64,000 nucleotides of DNA from Obrimoposthia wandeli. Its lineage: Eukaryota. The position numbers and the translations under genes are program-made. The DNA lies in assembly GCA_977020255.1 (NCBI GenBank), contig CDROCS010003798.1:124001-188000 (forward strand). The letters run 5' to 3'. The number at the start of each line of letters is the position of its first letter. Position 1 is the first letter of the stretch. Shown piece by piece: positions 11,262 to 11,353 of the stretch. The notes beneath the pieces were generated by a model. That model was not told the DNA's origin and searched no databases. It was given only the letters and a program-made list of their open reading frames with translations.

Positions 11262-11304
11262 CTAGAAAGAAAAATAATAAAAATAGAAATAACAAGAAAC
11301 TCAC
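11262..11304 (-). other. Putative 43-nt spliceosomal intron directly after an ATG micro-exon
   Basis: AAAATG|GTGAGT...pyrimidine tract...TTTCTAG|AAT TGC AAT ATG, in frame; length matches host introns of 42-46 nt. Confidence 0.7.
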
Positions 11305-11353
11305 CATTTTCAATTTCGTTTATAATATAGAGTTATTTGTTGATTGATACTTG

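Follow-up and report, generated by a model that had tools for sequence, protein, structure and literature searches.

The DNA polymerase gene (pPolB) of a Polinton/Maverick element in the genome of Obrimoposthia wandeli very probably contains a constitutive spliceosomal intron of 43 nt between its start codon and the rest of its coding sequence, so that full-length polymerase would arise only from spliced RNA. In the window, the whole 64,000-nt stretch of contig CDROCS010003798.1 that we analysed, the coding part of predicted pPolB exon 1 consists of the ATG alone (11305..11307, minus strand), to which a short untranslated leader would be added. The predicted phase-0 intron, GTGAGT...TAG with the 3′ end TTTCTAG, occupies 11262..11304 on the same strand and is followed by exon 2 (8099..11261, minus strand), for which frames and Pfam indicate a Cys/His-rich N-terminal domain, an Ala/Pro-rich linker and the polymerase. 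A second intron, missed in the initial annotation, is predicted at the start of the protease gene of the same element and is, on comparative grounds, better supported than the pPolB intron.

Both genes belong to a decayed family A copy (7417..21590, no strand assigned), delimited by terminal inverted repeats (7417-7980 versus 20931-21590) as an element of ~14 kb (14.2 kb). Its Pfam matches are rve, chromo, DNA_pol_B_2, Pox_A32, Adeno_PX-like, DSPc, BIR and RING, and family A as a whole has ~2000 candidate matches in the 1.35-Gb genome. Beyond the inverted repeats, the Polinton traits found are a protein-primed DNA polymerase B, a retroviral-like integrase (PF00665, E 3e-11, with a chromodomain alongside), an A32-like packaging ATPase (PF04665, E 1.4e-4, just under the cut-off) and a protease whose homologs carry PF00770 (adenain-like). 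PF03175 matched two pPolB fragments (E 2.7e-4 and 2.7e-3, both below the curated cut-off), and family A polymerase DNA shows a 68% match to family B copies that pass the Pfam cut-off. Candidate frames for one further Polinton/Maverick trait had no Pfam match and are assigned solely from position and size. In family A the accessory genes (window 17641-19651) include a dual-specificity phosphatase and an IAP (BIR + RING) that most copies carry as a single frame; a TATATAAG box precedes each.

The initial annotation had proposed, from the letters of the window, an ATG-only exon followed by a 43-nt GT-AG stretch in a viral gene, and motifs, frames and comparative pattern all agree with this prediction. 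The GTGAGT donor, long pyrimidine tract and TAG acceptor that it listed are each read on the minus strand; pyrimidines make up 85% of the 20 nt before TAG, the highest value among the short GT-AG candidates listed in a window-wide scan, and the stretch has a GC content of 21%. The GT donor consensus, pyrimidine tract and YAG acceptor are those of a U2-type intron, and removing the stretch restores the frame and the N-terminus seen in intronless homologs. A pattern defined post hoc, ATG|GTRAGT...YAG over 35-60 nt, occurs once in the 14.2-kb element against an expectation of 0.04, and at least one such pattern appeared in 3.7% of 300 Markov resamples. Upstream, a TATA-like box (TATATAAG, 11354..11361, minus strand) lies 54 nt before the ATG and is present in 28/30 family A copies; the same 8-mer is found 28-35 nt ahead of three other gene starts in the element. 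Further upstream are two ATTGG motifs (11384..11414, minus strand), which we take to be reverse CCAAT-box-like.

Conservation across copies, a check named in the initial annotation, was borne out among the best 30 of 40 scored copies from 2082 candidates, window included. ATG and TAG are present in 30/30, GT in 29/30 and GTAAGT in 27/30, the GTGAGT donor being a variant of the window copy, and 28/30 retain the length of 43 nt. Because these copies are 92-100% identical, their conservation mostly reflects recent common descent. Contigs from four runs of one sample, whose coverage of the whole element and its repeats resembles that of DNA, show variation of at least 1% at seven interior intron positions and at donor +3, and none on ATG, GT or TAG. 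These contigs contain no 11261/11305 junction, a result with no bearing on splicing because rare variants are lost from contigs. The unspliced frame from the first ATG closes within 8-32 codons in all 30 copies.

Assignment of the downstream gene takes account of the decay of the window copy, where the pPolB frame is closed after 43 codons and has several further breaks. The frame from the acceptor in other family A copies reaches the polymerase N-terminal region through the Cys/His domain and Ala/Pro linker. Because this frame leads into the polymerase, and because family B frames open with the same domain, we identify the gene behind the 43-nt stretch as pPolB; in family B, 26/91 polymerase matches lie in open frames of at least 1200 codons, and 20/20 examined copies open with that domain. 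Directly behind the acceptor the minus strand reads AAT TGC AAT ATG. The Cys codon (11256..11258, minus strand) is conserved across families in alignment (30/30 family A and 23/29 family D copies), with the first Cys aligned in 8/9 rows of the pPolB N-terminal alignment. It stands upstream of an internal in-frame ATG (11252-11250) that is found 9 nt behind the acceptor in 29/30 family A copies, so that a protein short of only four residues could form without exon 1. Phase-0 placement between codons 1 and 2 thus fits by sequence while an internal ATG also exists, and we infer use of the first ATG because the Cys codon ahead of the internal one is conserved. A zinc-ligand role of this first Cys stays putative: AlphaFold gave a mean pLDDT of 61 for the N-terminal domain (<50 for residues 1-16), and Pfam returned only weak zinc-ribbon hints there (E 0.015 or worse).

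Diverged relatives carry a similar arrangement. Family D comprises 30 loci, all decayed and several near-duplicates; 29 were parsed with a donor-locating pattern that itself requires GT. ATG lies 9 nt ahead of the donor in 22/29, GTAAG is found in 24/29 and AG in 21/29, and the predicted intron, 32-65 nt long with a mode of 48, is followed by the Cys codon in 23/29. A TATA-like box precedes the first-exon ATG position by 41-49 nt in 19/29. The codon equivalent to the internal ATG of family A is ATA in 26/29, and only 3/29 have a Met within the first 15 codons, which leaves family D without a nearby alternative start. AG is missing at the acceptor in 8/29 copies; one group (L162, L164-L166, L172-L174) has AA in its place. 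The intron ends agree between families A and D, and the similarity of the interiors stays at shuffle level (64% versus 62%). Since the D intron is one codon closer to the Cys than the A intron, the two positions are not strictly the same.

Seven metagenome pPolB loci reach the 5′ end, and six of them have their own ATG and no intron at the pPolB start. Intronless starts read M-N-C-x6-C (L219), M-S-C (L220), M-S-N-C (L224) and M-C (L223); M-N-C is the predicted spliced start of family A, and M-S-N-C that of family D. The seventh locus, L235, reads ATG|GTGAGT...TTTAG|AAT, with an ATG-only exon and a candidate intron of 51 nt. Its exon 2 is without the first half of the Cys/His domain, so the site is similar and homology is not provable. 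Family B pPolB begins M-S-I-C, with no ATG exon and no intron at the ATG. We considered a GTAAGT...CAG stretch upstream of that gene as a matching intron and rejected it, since no ATG stands ahead of its donor and the stretch overlaps both the TATA box of a divergent gene and the start of that gene. In L217-L220, relatives without an intron at the pPolB ATG, seven GT-AG stretches of 41-45 nt occur at other sites in or behind the N-terminal Cys/His domain, which points to intron turnover in pPolB.

The protease gene repeats this placement at its own start codon. Predicted exon 1 contributes ATG AA (12360..12364, minus strand; 28/28 covered family A copies), the predicted 39-nt phase-2 intron GTAAGT...TAG spans 12321..12359, and exon 2, assigned by frame, covers 11987..12320, all on the minus strand; the window copy of exon 2 has no Met. 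The reading across the junction is ATG AA|GTAAGT...TAG|T. Within family A the intron is present in 28/28 covered copies, with AG in 27, and it recurs at the same codon in family B (38 nt, 18/20 loci), family C (42 nt, two loci) and family E (one locus). Among 47 metagenome protease loci, the 5′ region was present in 42, and 15 of these have ATG-NN|GT...AG at the same codon, with 13 distinct sequences of 37-47 nt; an in-frame ATG stands there in 25/42, and 2/42 are ambiguous. The predicted introns are not a multiple of three long in 13 of the 15, and their interiors are at shuffle level (62% vs 60%), while the position is held across proteins that are only ~45-55% identical. On a protease tree of 38 rows, from which 8 near-duplicate or ambiguous loci were left out, the intron label changes 3 times versus 12.4 for shuffles, and the data do not reject one clade that unites the intron carriers (p-AU 0.28, support weak). 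This pattern fits one old gain with some loss, and the predicted intron is much older than the insertion of the element in the window. Two scans of a viral contig set with the protease alignments returned no relative. Several database protease homologs start with an apparent translated intron. In family B (L061-L080), the start codon of the protease and the stop of the capsid-like gene ahead of it overlap as ATGA, right before the donor, in 18/18 loci.

The initial annotation had further equated the 43-nt length with the host minimum and read the introns as adaptation to the host splicing machinery. We predicted host introns in myosin and chaperonin genes through gap-free paralog matches, searching 30-110 nt; of 107 junction rows, most of them false, 16 passed a GC and score filter. 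Their lengths are 39, 39, 40, 40, 40, 41, 42, 45, 48, 51, 55, 69, 85, 90, 93 and 105 nt, the last two looking doubtful, with 11/16 at 39-55 nt. By these predictions the viral introns (43 and 39 nt) fall in the smallest class of host introns, and the claim about size survives to that extent. GT-AG stretches of 42, 44 and 46 nt, which had been cited as host introns, do exist elsewhere in the window, but no host gene is recognised in the window: Pfam found none in the 150 of 229 window frames scanned, with three transposon-type matches. Adaptation to this host in particular finds no support: Polintons of unrelated metagenomes have the same protease intron position (37-47 nt). As a separate observation, the host genome holds more than 20 uninterrupted ~550-codon Cpn60_TCP1 frames (L086-L099 and others) beside intron-bearing chaperonin genes.

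A 162-nt intron also invoked by the initial annotation, which gave no coordinates for it, is not confirmed. The only in-frame 162-nt GT...AG segment in the element that skips a stop (18853..19014, minus strand) is, on copy comparison, coding sequence of the IAP gene. The skipped stop is private to the window copy (1/25), and 22/25 copies keep an open frame across the segment; that this is the intron intended is likely, not certain. Two other stretches, GTAAGT...AAG (17107-17070) and GTAAGT...TAG (16208-16151), occur within coding frames and we regard them as chance, and an ATG|GTAAGT on the plus strand at 18479 was discarded as a start-codon intron because no open frame lies beyond it.

These data lead us to propose how the gene would be expressed. 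Transcription would begin behind the TATA box, near 11335-11330, and the host spliceosome would join 11305 to 11261; initiation at the upstream ATG would then give a protein that starts M-N-C with the Cys/His domain whole. On unspliced RNA the first ATG starts a frame of 20 codons that runs slightly beyond the internal ATG, to a stop beginning at 11247. With the intron retained, this upstream frame would suppress polymerase synthesis. Unspliced protease RNA reads Met-Lys-stop, and the protease would be gated likewise, making both enzymes dependent on splicing. Most likely the mobile lineage acquired the introns, that of the protease once and long ago, and they are likely kept because any inexact loss deletes the start codon. 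A splicing-linked rise in expression is possible.

We consider it highly likely that the 43-nt intron is real. It is very improbable that the stretch is instead an unspliced AT-rich promoter or leader with translation from the internal ATG at 11252. Retention of that ATG in 29/30 family A copies would suit such a leader, and the family B GTAAGT...CAG stretch, located where a divergent gene has its TATA box and start, illustrates that such motifs can have other causes. However, the first ATG lies downstream of the TATA box and would then create an upstream frame that overlaps the coding sequence out of frame; the protein would lack the conserved Cys; and family D has no internal ATG on which to fall back. 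The near invariance of the internal ATG in family A could also mean that the intron is spliced and that translation mostly starts downstream, making this effectively a leader intron and the ATG-only exon a vestige. Against this stand the A at -3 of the first ATG, the preference of scanning ribosomes for the first ATG met, and the invariance of the Cys codon between the two ATGs (30/30 copies), and we regard a vestigial exon as improbable too.

Two further proposals accept a real intron in pPolB and differ on why it is there. Selection to escape silencing of intronless transcripts or to raise expression, as the initial annotation suggested, is compatible with our splicing prediction and in our judgement unlikely. 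Both introns sit at the extreme 5′ end, and introns near the 5′ end raise expression. An intron can also render a reporter HUSH-resistant, according to the available text of PMC7619638. However, that text describes HUSH for vertebrates and includes among its targets genes that have introns together with one long exon, and here a multi-kilobase exon follows the intron. In addition, the capsid, ATPase and integrase genes of the element have their own ATG and no intron at the start, intronless and intron-bearing relatives coexist in the same samples (L217 and L218 vs L219), and the protease intron long predates the window insertion.

Alternatively, the introns may be regulated gates, with retention turning polymerase and protease off and splicing turning them on by cell type or stage. 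Gating would accord with what unspliced RNA yields, namely a blocking upstream frame in pPolB and Met-Lys-stop in the protease, and with the persistence of the protease intron across such divergent proteins. However, the strong consensus donors suggest constitutive splicing, retention of any start-codon intron has the same consequence, and pPolB introns at other sites in relatives look like turnover, so that regulated gating seems to us doubtful. A broader version is speculative in like measure: a widespread Polinton clade would gate its polymerase and capsid maturation protease by start-codon micro-introns, host-regulated splicing choosing between silence, replication and virion maturation. 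These introns would then parallel adenovirus E2B splicing in minimal form and through independent evolution, having been retained across hosts while the protease diverged by half.

The constitutive introns that we favour can be set against several known systems. Translation of the adenovirus polymerase begins in a tiny exon upstream. For adenovirus pTP, the available text of PMC2397415 gives a predicted 9-nt first coding exon, and that of PMC11304566 describes common 5′ exons for the pTP and polymerase mRNAs. In both systems, which belong to related virus groups, a tiny upstream exon would supply the first codons of a replication protein, and the family D exon is also 9 nt; however, the E2B intron spans kilobases and selects between proteins, whereas the Polinton intron is 43-50 nt and absent in close relatives. 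Because close relatives are without the intron, we reject homology and regard convergence as the most likely source of the likeness. Cellular genes, such as those for ribosomal proteins, commonly have start-codon introns, as the accessible part of Nielsen and Wernersson (2006, PMC1626468) describes; like the pPolB intron these are in phase 0 between codons 1 and 2, but here the gene is one for viral replication. Introns also occur inside Polinton-like elements: dinoflagellate eupolintoviruses have introners (available text of PMC12166617) and Polinton-like viruses of cryptophytes have group I introns (available text of PMC12220804), which are young mobile introns or ribozymes. The introns predicted here are short and AT-rich, with interiors that look unrelated between families and a position fixed across distant families, which would set them apart from introners, whose similar sequences sit at many unrelated sites.

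Animal Polintons (eupolintoviruses, 'adintoviruses') share with our element the inverted repeats, pPolB, integrase, packaging ATPase, adenain-like protease, capsid-like frames, a length of ~14 kb and copies that are mostly decayed. They are described with intronless core ORFs, whereas first-codon introns are predicted here in pPolB and protease. For vertebrate Mavericks, the available text of PMC8097293 reports "eight conserved and intronless ORFs", and for nematode Mavericks that of bioRxiv 10.1101/2022.07.12.499685 reports intronless core genes, with introns in cargo genes only. The adintovirus paper (PMC8502044) contains no occurrence of "splic" or "exon", and spliceosomal introns go unmentioned in the available portion of the preprint on the nematode polymerase. 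We found no report of start-codon introns in animal Polinton core genes in the literature searched, parts of which were available as partial text, though the founding papers of 2006-2007, Repbase or supplements may annotate spliced genes. Each ingredient is known, and a fixed placement at Polinton enzyme start codons across a clade was not found in that same searched literature.

Searches and annotation treat Polinton core genes as ORFs free of introns, which in this clade would yield a protease without a start codon or with a false N-terminus. Annotation blind to such introns could score elements as defective though they are not. An intron conserved in position further suggests nuclear transcription and splicing of these genes, long maintained by selection. 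Presence or absence at one exact codon also offers a clean case for following how introns come and go in a lineage of DNA viruses that lacks reverse transcriptase.

Several observations fall outside this argument. In family B (L061-L080), an ORF of ~155 aa stands head to head with pPolB, the two having a TATA-rich stretch in common; homologs occur in metagenome relatives (L224, L234, L236, L250, L256-L258 and L261), and its product may resemble a TATA-binding-protein fold. The same genome contains a further, distant Polinton-like type (L101-L130, L140, L143, L147 and L150) with a PF21738 capsid, whose protease frames have no intron at the start. Elsewhere in the window (3249-4500, 41038-41651, 44584-46025 and 51709-59000) are a tandem array of 16 nt, another array of 45 nt, transposase fragments of hAT and IS4/piggyBac-like type, and a stretch of strong skew that has a DUF5641 match and is probably a decayed retroelement.
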